From: a virus
Virus record (IMG/VR): IMGVR_UViG_3300040811_000687
Reading direction: 5' to 3' (one strand)
Length of the DNA: 64,000 bases
Shown here: positions 8,302-62,153 of the stretch, piece by piece
Layout of the letters: each line of letters begins with the position of its first letter
How positions within the stretch are numbered: the stretch's first letter is position 1
The notes under the pieces: generated by a model
What the model was told of the DNA's origin: nothing
Databases searched by the model: none
What the model saw: the letters and a program-made list of their open reading frames with translations, nothing else
Translations under genes and position numbers: made by a program

Positions 8302-8670
8302 TTATAATCCCATTAAATCTCTTATTTCGGGATCAATCATATCCCTAGACCACGTAGGTGTCATTGTAATTCTAACTTTGCATTTAAGTCCTGGTATACT
8401 TTCAACGGCTTGTCTTACTCCGTTAACTATTTCATCTACGGCAGGACAAAAAGCAGACGTTAAACTCATTAATACAAATACATATCTTTCAGAGGTAACT
8501 TTAACATCATATATAAGTCCGAGTGTGTATATATCTGTAGAAATTTCAGGATCATAACAAGTTTTAAGTTTCTCTGTAATTTTATTAATAAACTCTAGAC
8601 GCATTTCTTGATCGTCTTTAATATCTGATAAAGTAGCGTTTACTTGTGGATCAATTGATGGTTCATTCAT
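8302..8670 (-). CDS. SufT/PaaD-like (DUF59/MIP18) Fe-S cluster assembly protein
   Basis: YDPEISTDIYTLGLIY, LTSAFCP, PTWSRDMI. Confidence 0.9.
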   Translation of the reverse strand: MNEPSIDPQVNATLSDIKDDQEMRLEFINKITEKLKTCYDPEISTDIYTLGLIYDVKVTSERYVFVLMSLTSAFCPAVDEIVNGVRQAVESIPGLKCKVRITMTPTWSRDMIDPEIRDLMGL

Positions 8671-15635: not shown

Positions 15636-16087
15636 AGACTTACCAGTACGATTTAGAAAAGATTAAAAAAGAGTTAGAAACTTTACCAGATTATAATAAA
15701 CAATTATATCTACAAGGTTATTCTAAAGACATGGATCCTGAAGAAGGAGCTGGTAAAGGTTATGACGTAGATAAAGTAGAACACACATATACTGTTCCTT
15801 TATTTGATATACCTTATATTAATAGTATAATGGAAGAACACAAACTTACTAGAACAAGATTGATGAGAATGAAACCTAAAGCATGTTATCTTTGGCATAA
15901 TGACTTGACACAAAGATTACATATACCAATAGTAACAAATGAACACTGTTTCTTATTACTAGATAATGATAGAATACACATACCAGCCACAGGAGAGGCG
16001 TATGTAATAGACACTAGAAAAAAACATACAGCACTAAATTGTTCAAAAGAAGATCGTACTCATATTGTTGGAGGACTACCTTATTAA
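15632..16087 (+). CDS. 2OG-Fe(II) dioxygenase, aspartyl/asparaginyl beta-hydroxylase-like
   Basis: WHND (HxD), RLHIPI, HTALN, RTHIV. Confidence 0.8.
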   Translation: MKTYQYDLEKIKKELETLPDYNKQLYLQGYSKDMDPEEGAGKGYDVDKVEHTYTVPLFDIPYINSIMEEHKLTRTRLMRMKPKACYLWHNDLTQRLHIPIVTNEHCFLLLDNDRIHIPATGEAYVIDTRKKHTALNCSKEDRTHIVGGLPY

Positions 16088-17388
16088 TGGATAATACATT
16101 ATATGACGCCGTTATTACATCACTGCCAGGAATGGATAAGGGTAAACCTGCACCTGGTCCTTCTTTTTTAAAAGGATATTTAGAACCATTAGGATTTAAA
16201 ATTAAAGTTATAGATGGTAATCAATTAGATACTTTAGAAAATATACACAAAGAAATTGCAAAATATAAATTTAGATGGTTAGGTATATCTGTATTTTCTT
16301 TTATGCAAAAAGAAGATGGTTTAAAATTAGGAGAAAAATATGATAATGCTTTTTACGGAGGATCAGGTGTTGATATAAAATGGCCTTCTAAAAATTTTAT
16401 AGTAGGAGAAGGAGAATATGCTGTACAAGAATTTTTAAAAGGAAATTTTGATTATCCTGGTATTAACGGAAGACTACCAAAACAGATAGAAAACATAGAA
16501 GATTTGCCACCACCAGATTATTCAGACGTAATAAAAGAACACAAATATGGCAGATTTATAATATCTGGTTCTAGAGGTTGTGTTAGAAATTGTACTTTCT
16601 GTGATGTTGCAAGTATCTGGCCAAAATTTAGATGGAAATCAGGTAAAAAAATTGCTGACGAAATACATAGTGTTGCTGAACATACTAAATCTGAAAAGAT
16701 AGCATTTTCCGATTCATTGGTTAATGGTTCAATGAAACATTTTAGAGATATGGTTTACGAATTATCTATAAAAAAGAAAAAGGTAAAATGGGAAGGACAG
16801 TTTATTGTCAGAGCTGAAAAGACTTTTTCGCAAGAAGATTTTGATAATTTGGCAAACTCTGGTTGTAATGGTTTGGAAATGGGTATAGAATCAGGTAATG
16901 AAAGTGTTAGAAATCATATGAAAAAAAAGTTTACTAATGATGATATAAAATACTTTGTTACCAATTTAGGAGAAAGAAAAATTAAAATGAAGTTCTTACT
17001 GATTGTAGGATATCCTACGGAAACGGAAGAAATGTTTGAAGATACTATGCAACTATTAAGAGACTATGCAAAGTATTCACATTTAATCAGTGTATCTCAC
17101 CACGTTATGATGACTTTTGAAAATACACCTTTAGATTTTGAACATAGAGAATTGTTTGGTGGAGAATTTGGCTTCAAATGGAAAAATCAAAACTCCGATT
17201 TTGATATAAGATTTCAAAGATTTATAAAACTTTATGAATTAGGAAACCAATTAGGTTATCAGTTTCAACAACATTGTATTGACAAAATAGAAAGATACAA
17301 ATCTGATAAACTTAATGAAAATAGAAAGTCTATAGGAATTGATCACCCTAGAAAGAAAAAAGTTAATTCTTTACATGTACAATCTTAA
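16087..17388 (+). CDS. cobalamin-dependent (B12-binding) radical SAM enzyme
   Basis: N-terminal B12-binding-like domain (PAPGPSFLKGYL, LGISVFS, YGGSG, VGEGE) then SRGCVRNCTFC, GIESG, IVGYPTET; start probably ATG 16087 rather than 16039. Confidence 0.88.
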   Translation: MDNTLYDAVITSLPGMDKGKPAPGPSFLKGYLEPLGFKIKVIDGNQLDTLENIHKEIAKYKFRWLGISVFSFMQKEDGLKLGEKYDNAFYGGSGVDIKWPSKNFIVGEGEYAVQEFLKGNFDYPGINGRLPKQIENIEDLPPPDYSDVIKEHKYGRFIISGSRGCVRNCTFCDVASIWPKFRWKSGKKIADEIHSVAEHTKSEKIAFSDSLVNGSMKHFRDMVYELSIKKKKVKWEGQFIVRAEKTFSQEDFDNLANSGCNGLEMGIESGNESVRNHMKKKFTNDDIKYFVTNLGERKIKMKFLLIVGYPTETEEMFEDTMQLLRDYAKYSHLISVSHHVMMTFENTPLDFEHRELFGGEFGFKWKNQNSDFDIRFQRFIKLYELGNQLGYQFQQHCIDKIERYKSDKLNENRKSIGIDHPRKKKVNSLHVQS

Positions 17389-18992
17389 AAAGATTTATTA
17401 AAACCTAAAGTAAATTTTCTTCCTTCTTGACTAAACCCATGAGGTGATTCATAATTTTCATCAAATAGATTTAACAAACTAACACCAAAGTCTATACCAT
17501 AATAATTATATCCAAGATTTAAATCTAACAAATGTGTTTCAGGCATTGTTATAGTTGACCAATTAGAATTATGCACATCTAAATGTCTGCCTTTATATTT
17601 GTAATTAGTAGTTATAGAAAAGTTATTTTTTAAATCTTTTGTATTCATAAATCCAACAGACCAATTAGGTCTTCTTAATTGTACTACATCAATCTTTTTA
17701 CTATTTAAATGACTAATAAAAAATTTAGAATTTTCTTGATTATAACTAAACTCTATACCGTCAGTATTTAAATCACCAATATCATTTTTAAATATAGTTG
17801 TTGCAAAATTATTTTTAGTTAATGTTAACTCTTGTGATTCTCCATATTCAATAGCAGTCCATGTTGTCTTATCTTTATAACTTGTTGATGTACTACCACT
17901 TATACTTAAACCATCTTCTACCTCTTTAAAGAAACCTAATTTATATGTTTCGTGTTCTTCATCAAACCTATGATGATATGAAAATATATTGTGTGAAAAA
18001 TTAAAGAAGTATCCTAGATTATGATGTTGACTTGCTAAAGATTCATTATGTTTATAATCAAAGCCAAAACCATATTTTTCTTTTTGATGTGTTCCTCTTA
18101 TTGTATAGTTTTCACTTTCATAATGAGAGTCGTCATAGTCTCTATCATATTCATGTGTATGAAAAGTTAAACTATTATTTAAATAATCAACACCTGTTTG
18201 TAAGGCAAAGAAAGTATTATCTGCCCATTTACCGTCTTGTATGGAAACACTATGACCATCTATATCAGAGAAAGTGTTTCTTGCAAACCAAGATGTTCGC
18301 CAATGTATTTGATCATACCATTTACTTACGTTAACACCTATTGTTTTATTATTTGTTCCATCTTTTTCGTCAGCTCCTGATAAAACAGAAACGTTTTGCG
18401 ACTTATGTTCGCCAGCTGAAAAAGATATATCAAAGTCATTTAATTTAGTATAGTAATTACCACTAATAGTTTTATCATTACCATTACCACCAATACTTAA
18501 TTTTTTATCATAATCTACAGTTGTTCTAAAATTAATTGCACCACCAACAGCGTCTGCTCCCCAATGAGCACCTTGTGACCCTTTGTATACATCTATTTGT
18601 ACAACATTAAACATAAAGTCTTGACCAACATCGTGGGCGCCTGTAGGTGTAGAGTAATCATTGATTGATATTCCATTTAATAATACTAATGTATGATTAG
18701 AATTAGTGCCTCTTAAAAACACCGATGATTGTTGACCTGTAGGACCTGATTGAGTTATGTCTAAACCTTGAACATAGTTTAATACTTTAGGTAAATCAAT
18801 TAGATTATACTTTTGAATTTCAGATTTTTTAATTGTAAGTGTAGGTGTTATCTTATCACCTAATGCGTTTGAGTTGTTTATGTTTGGATATATTGTAAGA
18901 CAAGGAATATCGTCATCCCATTTACAATCATCTTCCTTGGAATAGGCAACATTAGCCCATACCAAGATTAATATAAGAATTAATCTTATCAT
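17385..18992 (-). CDS. btuB: BtuB-like TonB-dependent outer-membrane cobalamin receptor
   Basis: Signal peptide; plug GLDITQSGPTGQQSSVFLRGTNSNHTLVLLNG and KGSQGAHWGADAVGGAIN resemble BtuB; NLFDENYE...GRKFTLG and C-terminal Phe; cobalamin riboswitch upstream. Confidence 0.88.
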   Translation of the reverse strand: MIRLILILILVWANVAYSKEDDCKWDDDIPCLTIYPNINNSNALGDKITPTLTIKKSEIQKYNLIDLPKVLNYVQGLDITQSGPTGQQSSVFLRGTNSNHTLVLLNGISINDYSTPTGAHDVGQDFMFNVVQIDVYKGSQGAHWGADAVGGAINFRTTVDYDKKLSIGGNGNDKTISGNYYTKLNDFDISFSAGEHKSQNVSVLSGADEKDGTNNKTIGVNVSKWYDQIHWRTSWFARNTFSDIDGHSVSIQDGKWADNTFFALQTGVDYLNNSLTFHTHEYDRDYDDSHYESENYTIRGTHQKEKYGFGFDYKHNESLASQHHNLGYFFNFSHNIFSYHHRFDEEHETYKLGFFKEVEDGLSISGSTSTSYKDKTTWTAIEYGESQELTLTKNNFATTIFKNDIGDLNTDGIEFSYNQENSKFFISHLNSKKIDVVQLRRPNWSVGFMNTKDLKNNFSITTNYKYKGRHLDVHNSNWSTITMPETHLLDLNLGYNYYGIDFGVSLLNLFDENYESPHGFSQEGRKFTLGFNKSF

Positions 18993-18995
18993 GTT

Positions 18996-19097
18996 GAGTT
19001 TCCTTGCTCGTTGTATGGCCTAGGTGGCATTCGGAGTATAACCGTATCAAGTAATCTGGACGAATTTCACGTCACTTTCCCACTACACTTTTAGGCC
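18996..19097 (-). ncRNA. class II cobalamin riboswitch (AdoCbl-variant / env8 HyCbl type)
   Basis: Minus strand GGCCTAAAAGTGTAGTGGGAAAGTGACGTGAAATTCGTCCAGATTACTTGATACGGTTATACTCCGAATGCCACCTAGGCCATACAACGAGCAAGGAAACTC; GGCCTA/TAGGCC stem, GGGAA, GCCAC B12-box elements, terminal hairpin holds the AAGGA SD with CAAG complementary to CTTG. Confidence 0.92.
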
Positions 19098-19114
19098 ATT
19101 GTTATATACTATAT

Positions 19115-19143
19115 AGTATATAATATTTTATCTAAAATGGCAA
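19115..19143 (-). promoter_or_regulatory. sigma70 promoter for riboswitch-btuB
   Basis: Minus strand TTGCCA-N17-TATACT, ending 17 nt before the riboswitch. Confidence 0.75.
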
Positions 19144-19165: not shown

Positions 19166-19507
19166 ATGGCTGGAATAGCAAACTTAACGATAGACCAAGG
19201 GTCCAATTTTACATACGATTTAGAAGTCACTAATACCGATGGTACAGATTTTGATCTTACTGGATTTACGATGGTTGCTAAAATGTCTAAAGGTTATTCC
19301 TCTACATATCCTAGAACATCATTTACTTGTACAGTAACAAATCCTACAGAGGGTGTGGTAACTATAAGTTTAACTGCCGATCAAACAAAAGCTTTAAAGG
19401 CAGGTCGTCACGTATTTGATGTTGTAGCTACTCACGCTGATAGTACTGTTACTCGTTTATTAGAGGGTATTGTTATCGTAACTCCATCTGTAGTCAAATC
19501 TTTTTAA
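19166..19507 (+). CDS. small virion structural protein (Ig/BppU-like adaptor)
   Basis: ANLTIDQGSNF...DLTGFT...ISLTADQT...GRHVFDV...RLLEGIVIVTP, typical of marine T4-like virion proteins; late promoter. Confidence 0.7.
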   Translation: MAGIANLTIDQGSNFTYDLEVTNTDGTDFDLTGFTMVAKMSKGYSSTYPRTSFTCTVTNPTEGVVTISLTADQTKALKAGRHVFDVVATHADSTVTRLLEGIVIVTPSVVKSF

Positions 19508-23023: not shown

Positions 23024-25075
23024 ATGCCAGTAATTCAAAACGCTAGTGTTCGTGTCGGCCTAGGACGTATAGGTTATACAGGATCAGGAGGTCCAACAGG
23101 TTTTACAGGTTCCAAAGGGGATCCAGGGGCTGCCGGATCACCAGGTGGTTATTCAGGTTCACAAGGTTTCACAGGATCACGTGGTGAACAAGGTCCAGGT
23201 GGTGGTTACACTGGTTCAGTAGGTGCTGTAGGTTTTACAGGATCCTCAGGAGGTTTAGGGTACACAGGTTCATCTGGTACAGTTGGTTTCACTGGCTCAA
23301 CAGGAGTAGGTTATACAGGATCAAAAGGTGCTGACGGATCAGATGGTGCTGTTGGTTTTACTGGTTCTACCGGAGCAGGATATACAGGATCAAAAGGTGA
23401 CGCAGGCTCAGATGGTGCCGTAGGTTTTTCAGGATCAAAAGGAGATACAGGTTCACAAGGTATACAAGGTGTAACAGGTTTTTCAGGATCAAAAGGAGAT
23501 ACTGGTACAGCAGGCGCTATAGGATATTCAGGATCAAAAGGAGATACAGGTTCACAAGGTATACAAGGTGTAACAGGTTTTTCAGGATCAAAAGGTGACG
23601 CAGGCTCAGATGGTGCCGTAGGTTTTACAGGATCAAAAGGTGATCAAGGTGTAATAGGTTTTTCAGGTTCAAAAGGAGATACAGGAACAGCAGGTGCTGA
23701 TGGTTCAGATGGTGCCGTAGGTTTTACAGGATCAGTTGGTATAGGTTACACTGGTTCAGCAGGTGCCACAGGTCCTCAAGGTCCAGGTGGTGGTTATACT
23801 GGTTCAGCAGGTGCCGTAGGTTTTACAGGATCAGCAGGATCAGGAGGAGATTCTCCTTTTGTATTTACAACTTCAGGAGATTATAGAACACTTACAGGTT
23901 ATATAGAAAGTGGTGTAACAAGTACAGTTAGAACAGCAGAATTTTCAGGTGATCTTTTAAGATTAACTTTAGCAACTTTTACTCCTACATTTTCAGCTTC
24001 ATCAACTCCAAGTTCATCATTAAATTGGGATGTTCCTTGTACAGGATTTTCTGTATCAGTAGATAACCCTAGTGATGTCACAAACGATTTTATAAGTTCA
24101 GTTTACTCTATCACTCAATCAAGTGGAAGTGTTAACGGTACTTTAAGTAATTATTCAGCAGGTAGTTATTCACAAACACCAGCAGGTGGTGTAGATTGGA
24201 ATCAAACTTTTACTGTAGACAATTCAAGTTCATATATTAGACCAATATCAACTAGTCGTACTGGAGGTTCGGCTGGTGCAACAATTAAATTTAATCATAA
24301 TGACGGCAGTGAATCAGAATATACAGATTCAAATACAAGTTTTTCTGTAAACTGGTCAACAGCGTCTATGAGTTTATCTAAAACTAATGTTAGCGGAAAA
24401 ACATTTTTAAAATCTTATGCTAGTACATCGTACTCTACTAGCACAAGTGGTATATCAAATTCAAGTAACACTTCACATGCTTTAACAGCAAGTGGTGGTT
24501 CTTTGAGTACAAATTCAGGAAGCGGATATGTGAGTGGGACATTTACATTTACATCACCTATACACAAAGACAATACAAGCGATACACGTACTATCTCAAA
24601 TACGTGTACGTTTACAAGACCTGTTGATGTAACAGGTTCCTCATATACGACAGATCAGTCGTCAACAACAAGCAACATATCTGCTTCATTTACGTATCCG
24701 TCTTTCTGGATCTGGACAACAGGAGTAGGAACTACTCCAACACTCTCCGATATAATAGATGATTCAACATCTACAGGTTTTGAATCGGCAGTTAATCAGT
24801 TGTCAGATCAAACAAGAACATTTTCAGTACAATCAGTTACTAATTCAGATTCTAATCCTAGGGCATTTTGGTTTGCTGTTAGAAATTCAGCGTCTCAACC
24901 TGGTACATTTAAAACAGGTGCAAGTGCAGGATTATTAAGTGATGTTAGTACAACAGATGGTGGAACAATTACACTAGTACCTGATTCACCATTATCAGGA
25001 CAAACAGGAGAAAGTTATCATTTATATGGATTTACTTTACAACCAGGAACAACTTACGTGGAGATAGGAGCATAG
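23024..25075 (+). CDS. collagen-like fibre protein with Ser/Thr-rich C-terminal domain
   Basis: About 260 aa of Gly-X-Y repeats (GFTGSKGD, GYTGS) then a beta-rich domain. Confidence 0.85.
   Translation: MPVIQNASVRVGLGRIGYTGSGGPTGFTGSKGDPGAAGSPGGYSGSQGFTGSRGEQGPGGGYTGSVGAVGFTGSSGGLGYTGSSGTVGFTGSTGVGYTGSKGADGSDGAVGFTGSTGAGYTGSKGDAGSDGAVGFSGSKGDTGSQGIQGVTGFSGSKGDTGTAGAIGYSGSKGDTGSQGIQGVTGFSGSKGDAGSDGAVGFTGSKGDQGVIGFSGSKGDTGTAGADGSDGAVGFTGSVGIGYTGSAGATGPQGPGGGYTGSAGAVGFTGSAGSGGDSPFVFTTSGDYRTLTGYIESGVTSTVRTAEFSGDLLRLTLATFTPTFSASSTPSSSLNWDVPCTGFSVSVDNPSDVTNDFISSVYSITQSSGSVNGTLSNYSAGSYSQTPAGGVDWNQTFTVDNSSSYIRPISTSRTGGSAGATIKFNHNDGSESEYTDSNTSFSVNWSTASMSLSKTNVSGKTFLKSYASTSYSTSTSGISNSSNTSHALTASGGSLSTNSGSGYVSGTFTFTSPIHKDNTSDTRTISNTCTFTRPVDVTGSSYTTDQSSTTSNISASFTYPSFWIWTTGVGTTPTLSDIIDDSTSTGFESAVNQLSDQTRTFSVQSVTNSDSNPRAFWFAVRNSASQPGTFKTGASAGLLSDVSTTDGGTITLVPDSPLSGQTGESYHLYGFTLQPGTTYVEIGA
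23428..23595 (+). repeat. exact 69-nt direct repeat within the collagen coding region
   Basis: 23428-23496 identical to 23527-23595; 23482-23547 is also identical to 25562-25627 in the next gene. Confidence 0.85.
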
Positions 25076-25076
25076 T

Positions 25077-26570
25077 ATGGCTACAAATTACGATGGTCTA
25101 ACACGAAACGTCTGGCCAGGAACATGGAGTACCGGCACTAACTCGCCTATCGTTATAGATACGGAAGTTAGAGGTACACTTCAAAGTATTTCTGGTGATA
25201 GTGGAGATAGATTAACAGATATTCCAGGTGCAAGAATAACAGAGGGTATGTTAGTATATGTTAAAAACGGATATACTTCAGGTTCAACTACATACACAGC
25301 AGACAAATATTATACTTACAAACTTCAAGGTAGTGAAGTACGTAGTAGTGTTACAGGTGCAGTGCCAAATGCCGACGCCAACTGGTCATTATTCAGTGTT
25401 GGTGGTGGATCAGGTTATACAGGATCAGCCGGCGCTATAGGTTTTACAGGATCAGCAGGTGCTGTAGGTTTTACAGGATCAGCAGGCGCTATAGGATATT
25501 CAGGATCAAAAGGTGATCAAGGTACTGTAGGTTTTTCAGGTTCAAAAGGAGATATAGGATATTCAGGATCAAAAGGAGATACTGGTACAGCAGGCGCTAT
25601 AGGATATTCAGGATCAAAAGGAGATACTGGTACAGCAGGCGCTATAGGATATTCAGGATCAAAAGGTGATCAAGGTGTTATTGGTTACACAGGTTCAATA
25701 GGTTTTTCAGGATCAAAAGGAGATATAGGATATTCAGGATCAAAAGGAGATACTGGAACAACAGGTGCTGATGGTTTAGATGGTGCTGTAGGTTTTTCAG
25801 GTTCAAAAGGAGATATAGGATATTCAGGATCAAAAGGTGATCAAGGTATAATTGGTTATACAGGTTCAAAAGGTGATCAAGGTGATCAAGGTGTTATTGG
25901 TTACACAGGTTCAATAGGTTTTTCAGGATCAAAAGGTGATCAAGGTATAATTGGTTATACAGGTTCAGAGGGAAATTTAGATATAGCAGTTGCTTCAACT
26001 CCTCCAGTTTCAGCAGGTATTGGTGATGTTTGGATTGATGACGCAACAGGTATTCAATACTTCTACATGAACGATGGTAACAGTAATCAATGGGTAGAAT
26101 TAAGTAACCAAGGTGTTGTAGGATTTACAGGTTCAGCTGGTGCTAGTACGTTATCTTCTCTTACAGACGTAACTATTAGTACACCACAAAAAGGCCATAC
26201 TTTAGTTTATGATGGTTCAGGTTGGGTACAAACACAAACTCCAATTTCACAATTTGTTGTAACAGCCAATGGTTCAAGTGCATACAGATTTGATGGTGCA
26301 GGATTCCCTAGTACGAGTGGCGATAATCCTACTATCTACCTTAAAAAAGGTCAAACATATTACTTTAGAAATACAACTAGTGGACATCCATTTAGAATAC
26401 AATCTACTACAGGTACAGGTGGAACAGTATATGATACAGGTGTTACTGATAATAACGCCTCAGGATCAACAGGTGTAGTTATATTTCATGTTCCTATGAG
26501 TGCTCCTGCGACATTATACTATCAATGTTCATCGCATGGTTCTATGGTAGGAACAATTACTATAGTTTAA
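25077..26570 (+). CDS. collagen-like fibre protein with C-terminal cupredoxin-like domain
   Basis: Gly-X-Y repeats; GDVWIDDATG module; C-terminal GQTYYF...GHPF...YYQCSSHGSMVG. Confidence 0.85.
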   Translation: MATNYDGLTRNVWPGTWSTGTNSPIVIDTEVRGTLQSISGDSGDRLTDIPGARITEGMLVYVKNGYTSGSTTYTADKYYTYKLQGSEVRSSVTGAVPNADANWSLFSVGGGSGYTGSAGAIGFTGSAGAVGFTGSAGAIGYSGSKGDQGTVGFSGSKGDIGYSGSKGDTGTAGAIGYSGSKGDTGTAGAIGYSGSKGDQGVIGYTGSIGFSGSKGDIGYSGSKGDTGTTGADGLDGAVGFSGSKGDIGYSGSKGDQGIIGYTGSKGDQGDQGVIGYTGSIGFSGSKGDQGIIGYTGSEGNLDIAVASTPPVSAGIGDVWIDDATGIQYFYMNDGNSNQWVELSNQGVVGFTGSAGASTLSSLTDVTISTPQKGHTLVYDGSGWVQTQTPISQFVVTANGSSAYRFDGAGFPSTSGDNPTIYLKKGQTYYFRNTTSGHPFRIQSTTGTGGTVYDTGVTDNNASGSTGVVIFHVPMSAPATLYYQCSSHGSMVGTITIV

Positions 26571-26614
26571 TTAAAAACTATTGTATTATTAACAGATTTG
26601 AAGAAGAATTATAT

Positions 26615-26622
26615 TATAAATA
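26615..26622 (+). promoter_or_regulatory. T4 late promoter TATAAATA
   Basis: Exact box in the intergenic region upstream of 26724. Confidence 0.7.
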
Positions 26623-26723
26623 GATGTAGAAAAGAAAAAAAAGACTTTTCTTGCAAGAATTATATGATAAAGAATTGAATTTTTAAATTTAAAAAAACAA
26701 TAATAAATTAGGAGACAACAAAA

Positions 26724-27737
26724 ATGGCAATTAACTTTCCAAGTAGTCCCGCATTAAATGACATATACACTCTCGGTACAAGACAGTGGAAATGGAATGG
26801 TAATGGCTGGGCTCTACAACCTCTTACAGCGGGTTTCACTGGATCAATCGGTTATACTGGTTCTAAAGGTGATATCGGGTATACAGGTTCTAAAGGGGAT
26901 ACTGGTTTAGGCTTCAACATTGCGAAGACATACACTAGTGTCGCTAACTTAACAGCGGATACAAGTCCATCAGGCATTAATACTGGTGAATTTGCTATCA
27001 TTGAAAACGGCTCTTTAACAGACGCCGAAAATTCTAGATTATACCTATGGAACGGTTCAGCATACTCATTCGTATCTGACCTTTCAGGTACAATTGGTTT
27101 CACAGGATCTTTTGGTTACACTGGATCTAAAGGGGATCAAGGTGTTATAGGTTACACTGGTTCTAAAGGGGATCAAGGTGTTATAGGTTACACTGGTTCT
27201 AAAGGTTTCACAGGATCAAAAGGTGACATTGGTTACACTGGTTCTAAAGGGGATCAAGGTGATATAGGTTACACAGGATCAAAAGGTGACATTGGTTACA
27301 CTGGTTCTAAAGGTTTCACAGGATCACAAGGTGACATTGGTTACACTGGATCAAAAGGTGACATTGGTTACACTGGATCTTTAGGTTTCACAGGATCAAA
27401 AGGTGATATAGGTTACACAGGATCAAAAGGTGACATTGGTTACACTGGATCTGAAGGTAATCTTGATATCACAACTTCATCTACTCCGCCAACATCTGGC
27501 GTAGGCGAAGGTGATATTTGGGTAGACAGCGCAACTGGTGTACAATACTTTTACTACAACGATGGTAACAGTACACAATGGGTAGAGCTTTCTAACCAAG
27601 GTGTTGTTGGATTTACAGGATCACAAGGTGCTCAAGTAGACACTGTTGATTCAAGTAACTTCAGCTCAGCTGTAACTTTACTAATCAAAAATAGTTCAGG
27701 TACTACATTAAAAACAATCATAGGTAACGCTACATAA
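26724..27737 (+). CDS. collagen-like fibre protein
   Basis: INFPSSP...WKWNG N-terminus, GYTGSKGD repeats, GDIWVDSATG module; AGGAG SD. Confidence 0.85.
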   Translation: MAINFPSSPALNDIYTLGTRQWKWNGNGWALQPLTAGFTGSIGYTGSKGDIGYTGSKGDTGLGFNIAKTYTSVANLTADTSPSGINTGEFAIIENGSLTDAENSRLYLWNGSAYSFVSDLSGTIGFTGSFGYTGSKGDQGVIGYTGSKGDQGVIGYTGSKGFTGSKGDIGYTGSKGDQGDIGYTGSKGDIGYTGSKGFTGSQGDIGYTGSKGDIGYTGSLGFTGSKGDIGYTGSKGDIGYTGSEGNLDITTSSTPPTSGVGEGDIWVDSATGVQYFYYNDGNSTQWVELSNQGVVGFTGSQGAQVDTVDSSNFSSAVTLLIKNSSGTTLKTIIGNAT

Positions 27738-50789: not shown

Positions 50790-50864
50790 GCGGGTGTAGC
50801 TCAGTGGTAGAGCGTCTCGTTGCCAACGAGAAGGCCGTCGGTCCGACCCCGATCACCCGCTCCA
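50790..50864 (+). tRNA. tRNA-Gly (GCC), atypical T-loop
   Basis: GCGGGTG/CACCCGC acceptor stem, TAGCTCAGTGGTAGAGC D arm, TCTCG-TTGCCAA-CGAGA anticodon arm, U73, encoded CCA; T-loop TCCGACC. Confidence 0.92.
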
Positions 50865-56800: not shown

Positions 56801-56808
56801 AAGTGTAT

Positions 56809-59094
56809 ATGAAAAAAAATACCACTACAAATATTAGCCTTGACCAAAAAAGTCAACTAGCTAAACTTATCGCTACAGAAAATATAACTATTCAACATAA
56901 CAATGTACGTACTGCTTCGTTTGATGTAAAAAACAGAGTACTTACATTACCAATATTCAAAACAAAATCGCCAGATGTTTATGACATGCTTATCGCCCAC
57001 GAGTGTGCTCATGCTCTCTTTACTCCTTATAAGTCGTGGGCAAAAATTCAAGATGATGAGCTACGTGCTTATGTAAATGTTCTAGAAGATTGTAGAATAG
57101 ATAAAAAAATACAAACACAATATCCTGGTGTAGTTAGAAACTACATTAATGGTTTTGATATTCTTAACAAAGCAAATTTCTTTGGTACTAAAGACAAAGA
57201 TATTAATAAAGACTACATGTTAATTGATAAGATCAATATGTTTTATAAGTCTTCAAAAAGACTACCAATATTTTTCTCTACTTTAGATAATATCTGGATT
57301 AATAAAGTTAATGCTTTAAAATCATTTAAAGATGTTGTTGAGTTAGCCAAGAAGATGTTAGATTGGCAGAAAAAAGAAACTAAAAAACAAGAAAAAAATA
57401 GTGACTTTTCTGGTAGTAATCTAGATAAACTTTACAAACAACCAGATGACCATCAAAAACCTGATGAGTCAGATAGTGAAGAACAAAATGAAGATCAAGA
57501 GTCTGCTGAAAAACAAGATGATGAAAAGCAAGACGGTGATCAAGAAGATGGTAACAACGAGTCGCAACAATCAACTACTCATGGTGATGGTGCAGCTACA
57601 GTAGATGGTTCAGGTCTAGACTCTAGAAAATTTATTGCTATTACTGATAAGAAGTATCAAGAAAACACAGCAAATATTACAGAGACAAAATACGATTACA
57701 GTTATGTTACTTTACCAGATTCTAATCTAGAAAAAATTGTTGTTAGAAATAAAACTTTCTTAAAAGAAATGAGAGATTATATCAAAACAGAAACTTACAG
57801 TTATTCTAGTACAATTCAATATCTAAACTGGTTAAGAAATGATTTTAAAAAGTATCAAAGTGATAACATGAAAACTGTTAACTATCTTGTTAAAGAGTTT
57901 GAAATGAAAAAATCTGCTACTGCTTACAAAAGAGCAAGTACTGATAAAACAGGTACTATTGATCCTCTTAAATTAAAAGATTATAGATTCAGTGATGATA
58001 TATTCAAAAGATTAACTGTACTACCTACAGAAAAAAACCATGGTATGATGATGTTGTTAGATTGGTCTGGTAGTATGTGTGCTGATCTTAAAAAAACTAT
58101 TGATCAATTAATTAATCTAGTAATGTTTTGTAGAAAAATTAATATACCTTTTAAAGTATATGCATTTACAACTGAATATTGCAATAAACAAGGTATGGAT
58201 CATAGAGATACGGATCCAACAAAGTCTAGTTGGAAATACAAAGCAAATGATATGTATCTAGAAAATTATAATTTAATTGAAATGGCAGATCATACTCTTA
58301 AAAAGAAAGATTTAGAAGAGTCTCTTATGTATCTTTACAACATGGGTTTATGTTATGATAATCACACTAGAGCTTCATATTGGGATACTAAACCACAATA
58401 CGAGGGTAGTAGATTTCATATGCCTAGTCAATACAGTTTAGGTACTACTCCACTTAACGAAGCTTTAGTTAGTTGTTTAAAACTAGTACCTTTGTTTAAG
58501 AAAAAATACAATATTGAAAAGATGACTTTTATTACCTTAACAGACGGTGGTGCCAATTACAGTGGTGATAGTAAACTAGTTGATGTTGATGGTAAACTTA
58601 CTAAAAAACATAAAGATGATTTAAGAGGTTCTTTAAATACTAATGAGCCGTATATACCAGTTAGAACTGTTATTAAAGTTGGTAAAAAACAATATGTTAA
58701 CGAAGATGGCAGATCACAATTAACTAATCAGTTGTTACGTATGATTCAAAAAGAACATAACATTAAGACAATTGGTTTCTTTGTATTAAAACAAATTAAA
58801 TGGTGGACAATTGGTGACTATGTTAGACATTGTAAAACATATGAGCAAAGAGAAAAAGCTATGGCTGATATTAAGAAGAAATTTCTTAAAGAGAAGTGTG
58901 CCGTTGTAACTCATAAAGGTTACAATAGATATTTCTTACTTAATGGTAAGACTATGAAAGTTGAGAATACTGATCTTTCTACAATTAAAGATGACGCCAA
59001 ACCAGGTCAGATTAAAAACGTATTTAGTAAAAGTATGAAAGGACGAATCACTTCTAGAACACTTTTAAACAAATTCATAGAGGAGGTTGCCTAG
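56809..59094 (+). CDS. CobT-like VWA protein with N-terminal HExxH peptidase-like domain
   Basis: AHECAH, NVLEDCRI, acidic linker, LLDWSGSM MIDAS, TPLNEAL, LTDG; ATG 56809 is the likely start. Confidence 0.85.
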   Translation: MKKNTTTNISLDQKSQLAKLIATENITIQHNNVRTASFDVKNRVLTLPIFKTKSPDVYDMLIAHECAHALFTPYKSWAKIQDDELRAYVNVLEDCRIDKKIQTQYPGVVRNYINGFDILNKANFFGTKDKDINKDYMLIDKINMFYKSSKRLPIFFSTLDNIWINKVNALKSFKDVVELAKKMLDWQKKETKKQEKNSDFSGSNLDKLYKQPDDHQKPDESDSEEQNEDQESAEKQDDEKQDGDQEDGNNESQQSTTHGDGAATVDGSGLDSRKFIAITDKKYQENTANITETKYDYSYVTLPDSNLEKIVVRNKTFLKEMRDYIKTETYSYSSTIQYLNWLRNDFKKYQSDNMKTVNYLVKEFEMKKSATAYKRASTDKTGTIDPLKLKDYRFSDDIFKRLTVLPTEKNHGMMMLLDWSGSMCADLKKTIDQLINLVMFCRKINIPFKVYAFTTEYCNKQGMDHRDTDPTKSSWKYKANDMYLENYNLIEMADHTLKKKDLEESLMYLYNMGLCYDNHTRASYWDTKPQYEGSRFHMPSQYSLGTTPLNEALVSCLKLVPLFKKKYNIEKMTFITLTDGGANYSGDSKLVDVDGKLTKKHKDDLRGSLNTNEPYIPVRTVIKVGKKQYVNEDGRSQLTNQLLRMIQKEHNIKTIGFFVLKQIKWWTIGDYVRHCKTYEQREKAMADIKKKFLKEKCAVVTHKGYNRYFLLNGKTMKVENTDLSTIKDDAKPGQIKNVFSKSMKGRITSRTLLNKFIEEVA

Positions 59095-59124
59095 ATGGTA
59101 CTGGTATCAACAGTTATTTTAGGC

Positions 59125-59153
59125 TTGCTTTCTATGGTAAAACCTGATAGGAT
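59125..59153 (+). promoter_or_regulatory. sigma70-type early promoter
   Basis: GGCTTGCTT-N17-TAGGAT. Confidence 0.65.
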
Positions 59154-59189
59154 AAAGGATAAAAACAACGTAACAAAAAGGATAACACT

Positions 59190-60404
59190 ATGTTAAACAC
59201 TAAACAAACACAATTTGTTGAACATGCTTATGCTATGTTTAACAAAAAAGAATTAACTGTAGAGCAGTTAAAGAAAGCCAATGTAAAATTTGGTTGTAAG
59301 TATGCTCCACAATGGTTGATTAAAAATAAAGATTACAAGTTAGGTAAATCTTTGTTCAAATTACCTGTAGATGGTGAGGACGTTTCAGTACCCACAAAAT
59401 CTGTAGTTAAAAGTAAAAAGACCACAGCAGTTGCTGAAGAAACTAAAAGTGAGGCTGCTTATATTGTTTCATCTTTAGTTGGCGATATTGTTCCTAAAAA
59501 GGATCCTATATTCGTTCCTTTTGGTAACTATACAGATATAAAATCTATCATAAAATCTGGTAGATTCTACCCTATATTCATAACTGGTTTATCTGGTAAT
59601 GGTAAAACTATGGGTGTAATTCAATCTTGTGCTGAGGCCAAAAAAGAATTAATCAGAGTTAACGTAACAATTGAAACCGATGAGGACGATCTATTAGGTG
59701 GTTATAGACTTAAAGATGGCCAAACTGTTTGGCAAAACGGTCCTGTTATTGAGGCAATGGAAAGAGGCGCTCTTTTATTATTAGATGAAGTTGATTTAGC
59801 TTCTAATAAAATCATGTGTCTACAACCAATACTTGAAGGATCAGGTGTGTACGTTAAAAAGATAAACAAGTTTGTTAAACCTGCTTCAGGTTTCAACATC
59901 GTTGCTACTGCCAATACTAAAGGTCAAGGTAGTGAAGACGGTAAGTTTATCGGAACTAACATTCTTAACGAAGCTTTTCTTGAAAGATTTCCTGTTACAT
60001 TAGAACAGAAATATCCAAGTACGGCTATTGAGAAAAAAATATTAACCAATACGTTAAAAGCGGCTGGTAAATCAGACAAAGGCTTCATTGAGAAGTTGAC
60101 TACATGGGCTGATGTTATCAGAAAAACTTATTTTGACGGTGGTGTAGACGAGATTATCTCAACAAGAAGATTAGTCCACATAACACAAGCTTATGCTATA
60201 TTTAATAATAAAGTTAAAGCTATTCAAATGTGTACTAATAGATTTGATGATGATACAAAAAATTCGTTTGTAGAGTTATATACTAAAGTCGATTCTGGTT
60301 CAAGTGTTGAAGACATTATGGAACAAAATAGACAACAGGATTTAGCTGCTCAATCGGATACTGACGAGGATAAAGATGAGTCGGAAGATTCTGACAATAT
60401 CTAA
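59190..60404 (+). CDS. CobS/MoxR-like AAA+ ATPase
   Basis: GLSGNGKT, LLLDEVD, ATANTKGQG, NEAFLERF, ISTRRL. Confidence 0.9.
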   Translation: MLNTKQTQFVEHAYAMFNKKELTVEQLKKANVKFGCKYAPQWLIKNKDYKLGKSLFKLPVDGEDVSVPTKSVVKSKKTTAVAEETKSEAAYIVSSLVGDIVPKKDPIFVPFGNYTDIKSIIKSGRFYPIFITGLSGNGKTMGVIQSCAEAKKELIRVNVTIETDEDDLLGGYRLKDGQTVWQNGPVIEAMERGALLLLDEVDLASNKIMCLQPILEGSGVYVKKINKFVKPASGFNIVATANTKGQGSEDGKFIGTNILNEAFLERFPVTLEQKYPSTAIEKKILTNTLKAAGKSDKGFIEKLTTWADVIRKTYFDGGVDEIISTRRLVHITQAYAIFNNKVKAIQMCTNRFDDDTKNSFVELYTKVDSGSSVEDIMEQNRQQDLAAQSDTDEDKDESEDSDNI

Positions 60405-60685: not shown

Positions 60686-60977
60686 ATTTAACGCTACATT
60701 TGATATATATATTATGGTCAAGGCTGCTCGTAAGTCCTTTTGACAGCGTTAAAGGAAGCTTATAAGCTTCGGATATGGACTAACGTTTTTGGTGTTTTTA
60801 TGGTCCTTAAATAAACGAAAACACCACTTATTGATATTCACTAGGGAACTGGTAGGGATCCTCAGCCTAGTGAATTTCTATAAGTAGGGTTGACAAATAA
60901 AATATCGTACTTATATAAATAACTGTAGACGCCATAATGGGTCTACTTAAATTAACTTGCTTAACAAAGGAGATAAT

Positions 60978-61427
60978 ATGACTAATAAAGCAATTTCAAT
61001 TTTCAATCAATTAAGACCACTATCAGTAGGATTTGATGATGTGTTTGACCATTTCCAAGGAATGTTTGATCACCAATATGATTCTATAAATACTTCAAAC
61101 TATCCACCATATAATATCATTAAGACAGGTAAATATACCTATGATATTCAGGTTGCTCTTGCAGGCTATGGTAAGAAGGACGTAGATGTGTCTTTTGAAA
61201 ATAACATCTTAACTATTAAATCTGTTAAAGACGAATCAGAAAAAGAGGTTGAGGAAAACGATGGTATACTACACAAAGGTATTGCCAAACGTATGTTTAC
61301 TAAATCTTTTACTATTGCCGATGATGTAGAAATCAAAGGTGCTGAACTAAAAGATGGTCTTTTAAGTGTTTCTATGGAACGAATCATACCAGAGAACAAA
61401 AAGGCTAGAAAAATACAGATAAAATAA
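60978..61427 (+). CDS. small heat-shock protein Hsp20
   Basis: NYPPYNI, ALAGY, LHKGIAKRMF, AELKDGLL; AGGAG SD before ATG 60978; TTGACA at 60890 and TATAAATA at 60914. Confidence 0.95.
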   Translation: MTNKAISIFNQLRPLSVGFDDVFDHFQGMFDHQYDSINTSNYPPYNIIKTGKYTYDIQVALAGYGKKDVDVSFENNILTIKSVKDESEKEVEENDGILHKGIAKRMFTKSFTIADDVEIKGAELKDGLLSVSMERIIPENKKARKIQIK

Positions 61428-62079: not shown

Positions 62080-62153
62080 GCGGATATAGTATAAAAGTAT
62101 TATGAGAGATTTCCAATCTTTAGAACTTGGGGCAGTACCAAGTATCCGCTCCA
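62080..62153 (+). tRNA. tRNA-Gly (TCC), non-canonical D and T loops
   Basis: GCGGATA/TATCCGC acceptor stem, AGAGA-TTTCCAA-TCTTT anticodon arm, CTTGG-GGCAGTA-CCAAG T arm, U73 and CCA. Confidence 0.85.

Follow-up and report, generated by a model that had tools for sequence, protein, structure and literature searches.

A cobalamin riboswitch nearly identical to env8 precedes a BtuB-like receptor gene in a T4-like pelagimyophage

The locus analyzed in this study lies in a 64,000-nucleotide (nt) stretch of viral DNA, the IMG/VR record IMGVR_UViG_3300040811_000687, referred to below as the window; its features are collected in Table 1. The minus strand at positions 18996-19097 encodes a 102-nt leader, a cobalamin (vitamin B12) riboswitch, whose last base lies 3 nt short of the ATG (18992-18990) of a gene encoding a BtuB-like outer-membrane receptor. 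The riboswitch is located between this target gene and a divergently transcribed gene encoding an LtfC-like tail-fibre protein, and the stop codon of the receptor gene overlaps that of a convergent radical SAM gene. Glycosyltransferase and fibre genes are found to one side of the locus, and radical SAM and sugar-modifying genes to the other. We conclude with good confidence that the leader is a functional class-IIa cobalamin riboswitch, an allele of the model RNA env8, that it resides in a lytic T4-like pelagimyophage, and that it most likely represses a phage BtuB-like gene for B12 uptake.

The leader matches the RF01689 family (AdoCbl-II, formerly AdoCbl-variant; also Cbl-IIa) with 75.2 bits (E = 6e-17, Rfam cmscan), compared with a gathering score of 36.5, and the match covers positions 1-81 of the 81-position model. 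A degenerate pattern of the core occurs once in the window and in none of 100 shuffles, and the observation of a riboswitch is thereby confirmed as real and far above the chance level. Helix P6 has three base pairs and a 7-nt loop, being short and devoid of the class-I peripheral extension. The 21 nt that follow the aptamer, down to 18996, consist of a 7-nt linker and a 3-bp hairpin, P13/L13, whose 8-nt loop CAAGGAAA contains the Shine-Dalgarno (SD) sequence and is complementary to loop L5, the CUUG of L5 (nt 47-50) facing the CAAG of L13 (nt 92-95). The SD, AAGGA(A), lies within L13, with 7-8 nt from there downstream to the ATG. An earlier note, made from the DNA letters alone, had described just this layout of kissing loop and SD.

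The same note had proposed that the leader equals env8 at all but about two positions. The env8 RNA (accession AACY021350931.1, family RF01689; Polaski et al., PMC5028336) is given no source in the literature covered here beyond that of a marine or environmental origin, and crystal structures of it, under the names env8HyCbl or env8Cbl-IIa, are available (PDB 4FRN and 4FRG, as cited in PMC6158498). The reference for comparison was row 8 of the original 144-sequence AdoCbl-variant Stockholm alignment (Weinberg 2010, PMC2864571, supplement file 200), that is, JCVI_SCAF_1096627830159/1185-1300, which reads GGCCUAAAAG.CGUAG...CAAGGAGACUC. This row is consistent with every published env8 residue number, namely U45, A46, G96, the unpaired A97 and G98, A99 and the hairpin 89-102 (PMC5028336), as well as the A9-U13 closing pair, the wild-type G12, J1/3 at nt 9-13 and a J1/13 of 7 nt (2018 NAR paper, PMC6158498). 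The window and row 8 are identical at 100 of 102 positions, and the two differences are those named in the earlier note, U for C at nt 11 (19087) and A for G at nt 98 (19000). We take row 8 to be the env8 sequence. The two RNAs have in common the 102-nt length, the helices, the 7-nt J1/13, the L5-L13 kissing loop and the SD in L13, so that the window retains every env8 switch element, and env8 differs by two bases only, having C11 where the window has U11 in the J1/3 turn, and G98 where the window has A98 in the L13 bulge (A97 A98 versus A97 G98).

Table 1. Features of the riboswitch locus, with positions in the window
Feature	Coordinates	Strand	Evidence
Cobalamin aptamer: P1, J1/3, P3, P4/L4, P5/L5, P6/L6, J6/3	19017..19097	-	cmscan RF01689, full model
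nt 11 = U (C in env8), middle of the T-loop-like J1/3 turn, nt 9-13	19087	-	sequence comparison
L5 loop, nt 45-50, UACUUG, kissing-loop partner of L13	19048..19053	-	direct reading; pairing published for env8 (PMC5028336)
J1/13 linker, 7 nt, AUACAAC	19010..19016	-	direct reading; 7-nt wild-type linker per PMC6158498
Regulatory hairpin P13/L13, nt 89-102, with the SD AAGGA at 19001-19005	18996..19009	-	direct reading; hairpin named in PMC5028336
nt 98 = A (G in env8), one of two bulged purines of L13	19000	-	comparison with env8-type copies
Candidate sigma-70-type promoter, TTGCCA-17 nt-TATACT, ending about 18 nt upstream of P1	19115..19143	-	consensus scan, 10/12 matches
BtuB-like outer-membrane receptor, 535 amino acids (aa): signal peptide, plug, minimal barrel of about 22 strands	17385..18992	-	Pfam, NCBIfam, AlphaFold2, Foldseek
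Convergent gene for a radical SAM protein akin to the class B (B12-binding) enzymes	16039..17388	+	Radical_SAM 71.5 bits (Pfam)
Divergent neighbour, LtfC-like tail-fibre assembly protein	19166..19507	+	phrog_1084 E = 1e-26; phrog_3304 E = 4e-19

The env8 102-mer is present letter for letter in the IMG/VR contigs L002 and L005. The U11 variant is found in row 9 of the 2010 alignment, which is identical to the window at 101 of 102 positions, and also in contigs L001, L003 and L006. Among 41 env8-type copies compared, A98 is unique to the window, the other 40 having G98. The same A98 is found, however, in RNA-library contigs of two estuary runs (X15 and X16), which have no differences to the window over 18855/18867-19082, and since these contigs are otherwise identical to the window, A98 is a real allele. 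They cover nt 16-102 of the riboswitch and the first 138 nt of the receptor gene, and they end at 19082, none of them spanning the intergenic region 19083-19138; this offers no more than a faint indication that a transcript begins near P1, RNA-library contigs being uninformative on strand, ends and level.

Several points weigh against the leader being a working env8 allele. The equation of row 8 with env8, though probable, is drawn from the number of the row and the residue numbering in the literature rather than from the GenBank or PDB record. The G98A change affects one of two bulged purines reported to be strictly conserved in position and number, and it weakens the SD from AAGGAG to AAGGAA. 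Finally, contaminating DNA is a possible source of the RNA-library contigs. As to the ligand, the earlier note had expected a preference for light-stable methyl and hydroxo forms of cobalamin; methylcobalamin is in fact photolabile and hydroxocobalamin is its photoproduct, so that the wording was wrong for the methyl form. The preference for hydroxocobalamin and methylcobalamin, which have a small upper ligand, is published for env8 only and not for the C11U/G98A allele (PMC5028336, PMC6158498), and J1/3, to which nt 11 belongs, is described as a selectivity determinant (PMC6158498). The "Env8" of the cobavirus paper is a contig name unrelated to the riboswitch.

Conservation of the RNA was analyzed in 18 distinct env8-type sequences, with 500 shuffles and slid registers as controls. 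Standard pairs make up 94.4% of the pair cells, and five base pairs have compensatory changes, of which P1 contributes two and P5, P6 and P13 a single one apiece; that of P13 is the pair 89-102, which changes from G-C to A-U in two copies. None of the 500 shuffles reached any of the five pairing measures, and slid registers are only 30-48% paired. Four rows with an apparently unpaired P1 result from a register slip of MAFFT in P1 of the GUGCU type and are paired on direct reading. The kissing-loop pairs U45-A99, C47-G95, U48-A94, U49-A93 and G50-C92 are invariant in all 18 sequences. Across the relatives, identity to the window is 80-97% in the riboswitch, 57-83% in the coding sequence and 42-65% in the 60 nt upstream. 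Thus the env8-type RNA is clearly maintained by selection, and this holds for the aptamer, the kissing loop and the SD.

The window itself is a T4-like pelagimyophage, closest to the Pelagibacter phage Mosig (EXVC030M). Its 64 kb contain a T4-type large terminase, tail sheath, portal, scaffold, major head protein, UvsW-like helicase, gp46-like nuclease and CobS, as identified by PHROG profiles (among them phrog_2, 213, 138, 23, 237, 16 and 77, with E-values from 1e-70 to 1e-207; the portal has 1e-207 and the major head protein 8e-170), together with collagen-like tail fibres and a baseplate-fibre connector. The best DNA match is that of the portal-to-capsid block to Mosig, with 75.5% nucleotide identity over 92% of its length, followed by HTVC008M and then by the OM43 phage Melnitz. 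The viral setting is shared by other env8-type copies. A scan of IMG/VR with the degenerate riboswitch pattern returned 34 contigs, of which 27 are env8-type, and in 25 of these 27 the riboswitch precedes a gene for a 535-543-aa BtuB-like receptor and has phage neighbours. Among the other open reading frames (ORFs) of the env8-type contigs, 58% are homologous to ORFs of the window, with conserved order.

The env8 scaffold, a Sanger scaffold of the Global Ocean Sampling (GOS), belongs to the same lineage. The annotated 2010 alignment shows what flanks env8 on this scaffold, over 100 nt on the upstream and 200 nt on the downstream side. The upstream flank includes the reverse-complemented start of the LtfC-like gene, a 27-mer of which is found exactly, and at the homologous place, in 12 viral loci including L002 and L005; the promoter-region variant of the scaffold is exact in L020, and the downstream flank codes for the same receptor N-terminus. 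The suggestion that the env8 lineage is viral is thus borne out by the T4-like genes of the window, the exact 102-mer on two viral contigs and the GOS flanks.

That the window could instead be chromosomal DNA of SAR11 (a genomic island or prophage) or a chimera created in assembly, with env8 itself being bacterial, seems extremely improbable, since phage genes flank the riboswitch on both sides and T4-like structural and replication genes are found throughout the 64 kb. The gene order recurs in more than 20 independently assembled viral contigs and in the Sanger GOS scaffolds, the nearest cultured relatives are lytic pelagimyophages, and the annotated ORFs of the window include neither an integrase nor a SAR11 housekeeping gene. 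The arguments for a chromosomal source are that the same riboswitch class and a related receptor do exist on SAR11 chromosomes, that one env8-type copy (L249, see below) adjoins a SAR11-like sdhA gene, and that the guanine-plus-cytosine (GC) content of the window, about 30%, is as in SAR11. In 50,697 GenBank phage records searched by blastn and tblastn, neither the riboswitch nor the 4-kb region was found, and the receptor had no true phage homologue there, the matching records being bacterial contigs filed as phage; close relatives of the window's genome may be missing from this set. The nearest virus record among those available, G001, has no RF01689 match, but is a fragment only 25% complete.

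The viral origin of env8 does not extend to its class. Rows with an env8-type loop number 8 in the seed of 144, and at least 116 rows have a SAR11-type platform, which is characterized by CCUG in L5, CAGGAAAAG in L13 and a long conserved tail. The same degenerate pattern, when run over one genome per species for 185,579 GTDB species, gave 105 matches, 99 of them SAR11-type and nearly all in Pelagibacteraceae, including a complete chromosome of 1.30 Mb and contigs of 0.3-1.2 Mb, some of the matches lying deep inside. Infernal found one copy above the cut-off in each of three SAR11-type genomes (72-98 bits). Of 151 Pelagibacteraceae genomes with a completeness of 80% or more, 24 had one RF01689 copy above the cut-off by the same program, in several cases more than 0.5 Mb inside a contig, and 150 other Pseudomonadota genomes had none. 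Among the first 120 metagenome matches listed, 13-14 (about 12%) are env8-type and three belong to a second phage type. The class as a whole is therefore located mainly on SAR11 chromosomes and not in phages. The earlier note had supposed that most of the class may derive from pelagic T4-like phages, and had itself named a majority of members on bacterial chromosomes as the observation that would speak against this; since that is what the census gave, the broad claim fails. A mainly phage-borne class with exceptional bacterial copies is very improbable, and is already refuted at this sampling depth, even though the class is carried by two separate T4-like phage lineages and by 27 IMG/VR contigs in its env8 form, and even though GOS filters caught infected cells, so that some seed rows are viral.

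A few env8-type copies are of uncertain affiliation. The only env8-type match in the species genomes (L069:2-620, minus strand) is on a 2.9-kb contig with 28.5% GC in a metagenome-assembled genome labelled Flavobacterium, and is probably a mis-binned fragment of SAR11 or phage. Env8-type riboswitches with receptors of 540-590 aa were found on L212, L252 (46% GC), L147 and L176 (40% GC), the GC content of these contigs being well above that of SAR11 or of the window phage. L252 and L173, neither of which is SAR11 chromosome, share a block of an 863-aa ORFan, a 188-aa ORF and a ClpX-like ATPase. The assumption that all env8-type metagenome loci are phage was rejected, as L249 adjoins a SAR11 sdhA gene.

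The product of the regulated gene has a Plug domain (64.9 bits, Pfam), and its best NCBIfam family is TIGR01779, the TonB-dependent B12 receptor (95.3 bits). The AlphaFold2 model, built with 54 relatives, has a mean predicted local distance difference test score of 88 and a predicted template modelling score of 0.88, and predicts a plug and a barrel whose strands, about 22 in number, have only very short loops between them. The best 12 Foldseek matches in the PDB are all E. coli BtuB (TM score 0.83, E = 6e-30), siderophore receptors following at 1e-20, which points to a plug-in-22-strand-barrel fold nearest to that of BtuB. We infer that the phage receptor transports B12. Several observations weigh against that assignment. 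The protein shares 20% identity with BtuB of E. coli, and its 95.3 bits compare with a cut-off of 599.7 for the BtuB equivalog (TIGR01779/NF007926); as the score is far below this cut-off, the receptor is called here BtuB-like and not BtuB. It has no recognizable TonB box, the N-terminus containing a C-x-W-D-x3-PC motif instead, and the window showed no transporter that would carry B12 across the inner membrane. Moreover, TonB_C (PF03544) was not found in five SAR11 genomes with the cassette (G002, G003, G004, G056 and G061), by a search whose control was positive in only 3 of 14 known genomes. The Cys-x-Trp-Asp...Pro-Cys motif occupies the TonB-box position in both the phage receptors and one type of SAR11 receptor, type A.

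The convergent neighbour encodes a protein with the CxxxCxxC core of radical SAM enzymes (CVRNCTFC), and its best NCBIfam matches are B12-binding radical SAM families. It is 38% identical to a 523-aa phage homologue on contig L014. The match to the B12-binding domain PF02310 is weak in the window protein (13.3 bits), which counts against a B12-dependent enzyme here; it amounts to 28.5 bits in the L014 homologue, and to 38.8 bits, above the cut-off, in the neighbour of a SAR11 receptor (L113). Radical SAM homologues adjoin the receptor gene in 14 loci of viruses, 6 metagenomic loci of env8 type and 40 SAR11 loci, and this linkage is preserved even between divergent clades of phages. Thus the connection to class B radical SAM enzymes drawn in the earlier note is plausible as regards homology, the weak B12-domain match being its less secure part.

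The remainder of the window contains further genes around this locus. A sugar and cofactor gene island at 1-22907, mostly on the minus strand, adjoins the collagen-like fibre genes at 23024-27737. The island encodes an epimerase, a carbamoyltransferase, a DegT-type aminotransferase, several radical SAM/SPASM pairs, an Fe-S assembly protein (8302-8670), an Asp/Arg hydroxylase-like ORF, and glycosyl- and methyltransferases. At 56803-60404 and 60957-61427, a 763-aa phrog_459 'peptidase' precedes a CobS-like AAA ATPase (phrog_249; TIGR01650 69 bits, below the cut-off) and HSP20. Homologues of HSP20 and of the Fe-S assembly protein, 58-64% identical, recur beside env8-type cassettes on other contigs. 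Two tRNA genes are found on the plus strand at 50790-50861 and 62080-62150 (67.5 and 43.4 bits, Rfam).

A second T4-like phage lineage has RF01689 riboswitches with the SAR11-type platform (L015:4062-6626, minus strand; L023:1241-3774, plus strand; L011, L022, L024, L027 and L033), located beside TerL, gp32, UvsX and UvsW. The riboswitch there precedes an operon encoding a 169-183-aa DUF6580 (PF20221) membrane protein and then a 621-638-aa TonB-dependent receptor. The DUF6580 protein, which could perform the inner-membrane step of B12 uptake, has no sequence match in the PDB, and its Atlas matches are DUF6580 clusters only; no DUF6580 protein is present among the ORFs of the window.

In SAR11, the riboswitch precedes genes for BtuB-like receptors of 608-675 aa that fall into two N-terminal types. 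Type A resembles the phage protein in a shared C-x-W-D-N-x3-PC motif and in an end-to-end identity of 30-33%. A B12-binding radical SAM gene, with the domain above the Pfam cut-off, is found nearby in 40 of 99 SAR11 loci; it encodes 538-546 aa, and the SAR11 loci include L090:2759-4876 (minus strand), L098, L113 and about 95 others of Pelagibacteraceae. As the set of riboswitch, btuB-like gene and B12-type radical SAM gene mirrors the one on SAR11 chromosomes, the cassette is a module of host type that the phage retains. In a quick maximum-likelihood receptor tree with its root placed on SAR11 type B, SAR11 type A comes out as the sister of the main env8-type clade, each with 99% support in the Shimodaira-Hasegawa-like approximate likelihood ratio test, and the short phage receptors of 535-548 aa are derived from forms of 609-624 aa. 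The metagenome contig L249 (310-4953), which is basal in this tree, combines an env8-type short platform and a 618-aa receptor with an adjacent SdhA 87-89% identical to that of SAR11; given this SAR11-like SdhA, the env8-type architecture exists on SAR11 DNA as well. These sequence comparisons make it likely that the phage cassette came from the host, with the L249 lineage, its chromosomal relative, as the likely donor.

The shortness of the phage receptor could also be explained if it served to alter the cell surface, by exclusion of superinfecting phages that enter through the BtuB-like protein of the host, for example, or as a decoy or pore, with the B12 control being a leftover or a cue of the host state. 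BtuB is a classic receptor of phages and colicins in E. coli. The loops of the phage protein are shorter by about 85 residues than those of host forms (535 versus 608-649 aa), the short forms arose within the phage clade, and neither TonB_C in the SAR11 genomes searched nor an inner-membrane partner in the window was found. Such a role is nevertheless unlikely. Clear purifying selection acts on the aptamer, the kissing loop and the SD in the phage lineage, which is difficult to reconcile with B12 sensing as a relic. The persistent linkage of a B12-type radical SAM gene to the receptor across phage clades also speaks against it, as does the second lineage, where the membrane protein encoded between riboswitch and receptor resembles part of an uptake operon. 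Most likely, therefore, the phage gene is a B12-repressed gene for B12 uptake.

We suggest the following mode of action. The leader would be transcribed leftwards from a sigma-70-like promoter. A promoter-like sequence upstream recurs in the closest viral copies; matches of this type are at chance frequency in the AT-rich window (14 found and 14.1 expected), and as they are no commoner than chance, the promoter in Table 1 is a candidate only. In infected cells short of cobalamin, the 14-nt P13/L13 hairpin would be free and AAGGA would recruit ribosomes to the ATG, so that the minimal BtuB-like receptor could be made, placed in the outer membrane and import cobalamin. Once bound to the aptamer, cobalamin would stabilize the L5-L13 kissing loop, bury the SD and turn translation off. 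This follows what is published for env8, where cobalamin contacts both the aptamer and the L5-L13 element, the loop is ligand-dependent at physiological Mg2+, and a reporter is repressed about 8.5-fold in E. coli by occlusion of the ribosome-binding site (PMC5028336). The purpose could be the supply of cobalamin to the neighbouring B12-type radical SAM enzyme of the phage. The present data directly support the identity of the RNA, its viral context, its conservation together with covarying pairs, and a fold of the gene product like that of BtuB; the promoter, the transport of B12 and the purpose are what we infer.

A wider possibility, which we regard as tentative, is that pelagic T4-like phages run a cobalamin economy of their own, in which the riboswitch and a stripped-down BtuB, complemented by DUF6580 in the second lineage, feed a B12-dependent phage radical SAM enzyme during infection, and B12 limits phage output in SAR11. 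If this is true, the enzyme possibly modifies the glycosylated collagen-like fibres encoded next door, phages would be an unrecognized sink and driver in the marine B12 cycle, and two decades of env8 biophysics would have concerned a viral RNA tuned to the conditions of infected cells.

Neither the RNA nor its fold nor its switch mechanism is new in itself. New, within the literature searched, are the findings that env8 is phage-encoded, that it controls a phage BtuB-like gene, and that pelagic T4-like phages carry cobalamin riboswitches; in that literature this is the first cobalamin riboswitch assigned to a phage. As env8 is a standard model in studies of riboswitch folding, single-molecule work and ligand design and serves as the Riboglow imaging tag, and as its biological source was previously just "marine metagenome", a pelagimyophage with a BtuB-like gene supplies a setting and a testable physiology. 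The data point to an auxiliary function of phages in B12 uptake by the bacterium that is most abundant in the ocean. The B12 regulation of SAR11 btuB was stated as unknown in 2022 (PMC9296465), and the presence of the RF01689 class before SAR11 btuB-like genes bears on this open question. The census also corrects the tempting over-reading of the whole class as viral.

Besides env8, three known systems are close to the one described here. The RF01689 riboswitches of SAR11, which form the bulk of the Rfam seed, share the aptamer family (72-101 bits), the btuB-like target and often the radical SAM neighbour; they differ in L5, in L13 and in their long platform, with the receptor start about 60-130 nt further downstream, and they are chromosomal and precede longer receptors of both N-terminal types. 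The btuB leader of E. coli (RF00174) uses a B12-responsive kissing loop that hides the ribosome-binding site and represses translation (PMC10653944). Like the window's RNA, it is a B12-type leader before the gene of an outer-membrane B12 receptor, with a kissing loop over the ribosome-binding site, whereas its aptamer is of class I, has a peripheral extension and is selective for adenosylcobalamin, and it is a cellular element controlling a full-size BtuB with a TonB box. For cobalamin riboswitches in phages, nothing relevant was found in the literature searched. Glutamine riboswitches are reported in Melnitz, Mosig and metagenomic pelagimyophages in a study that calls phage riboswitches rare and describes no cobalamin riboswitch in a phage, and one in an OM43 host before btuB (PMC9004378). 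These elements likewise belong to T4-like phages of streamlined marine heterotrophs and mirror the regulatory style of the host, and they differ from the riboswitch of the window in ligand and target.

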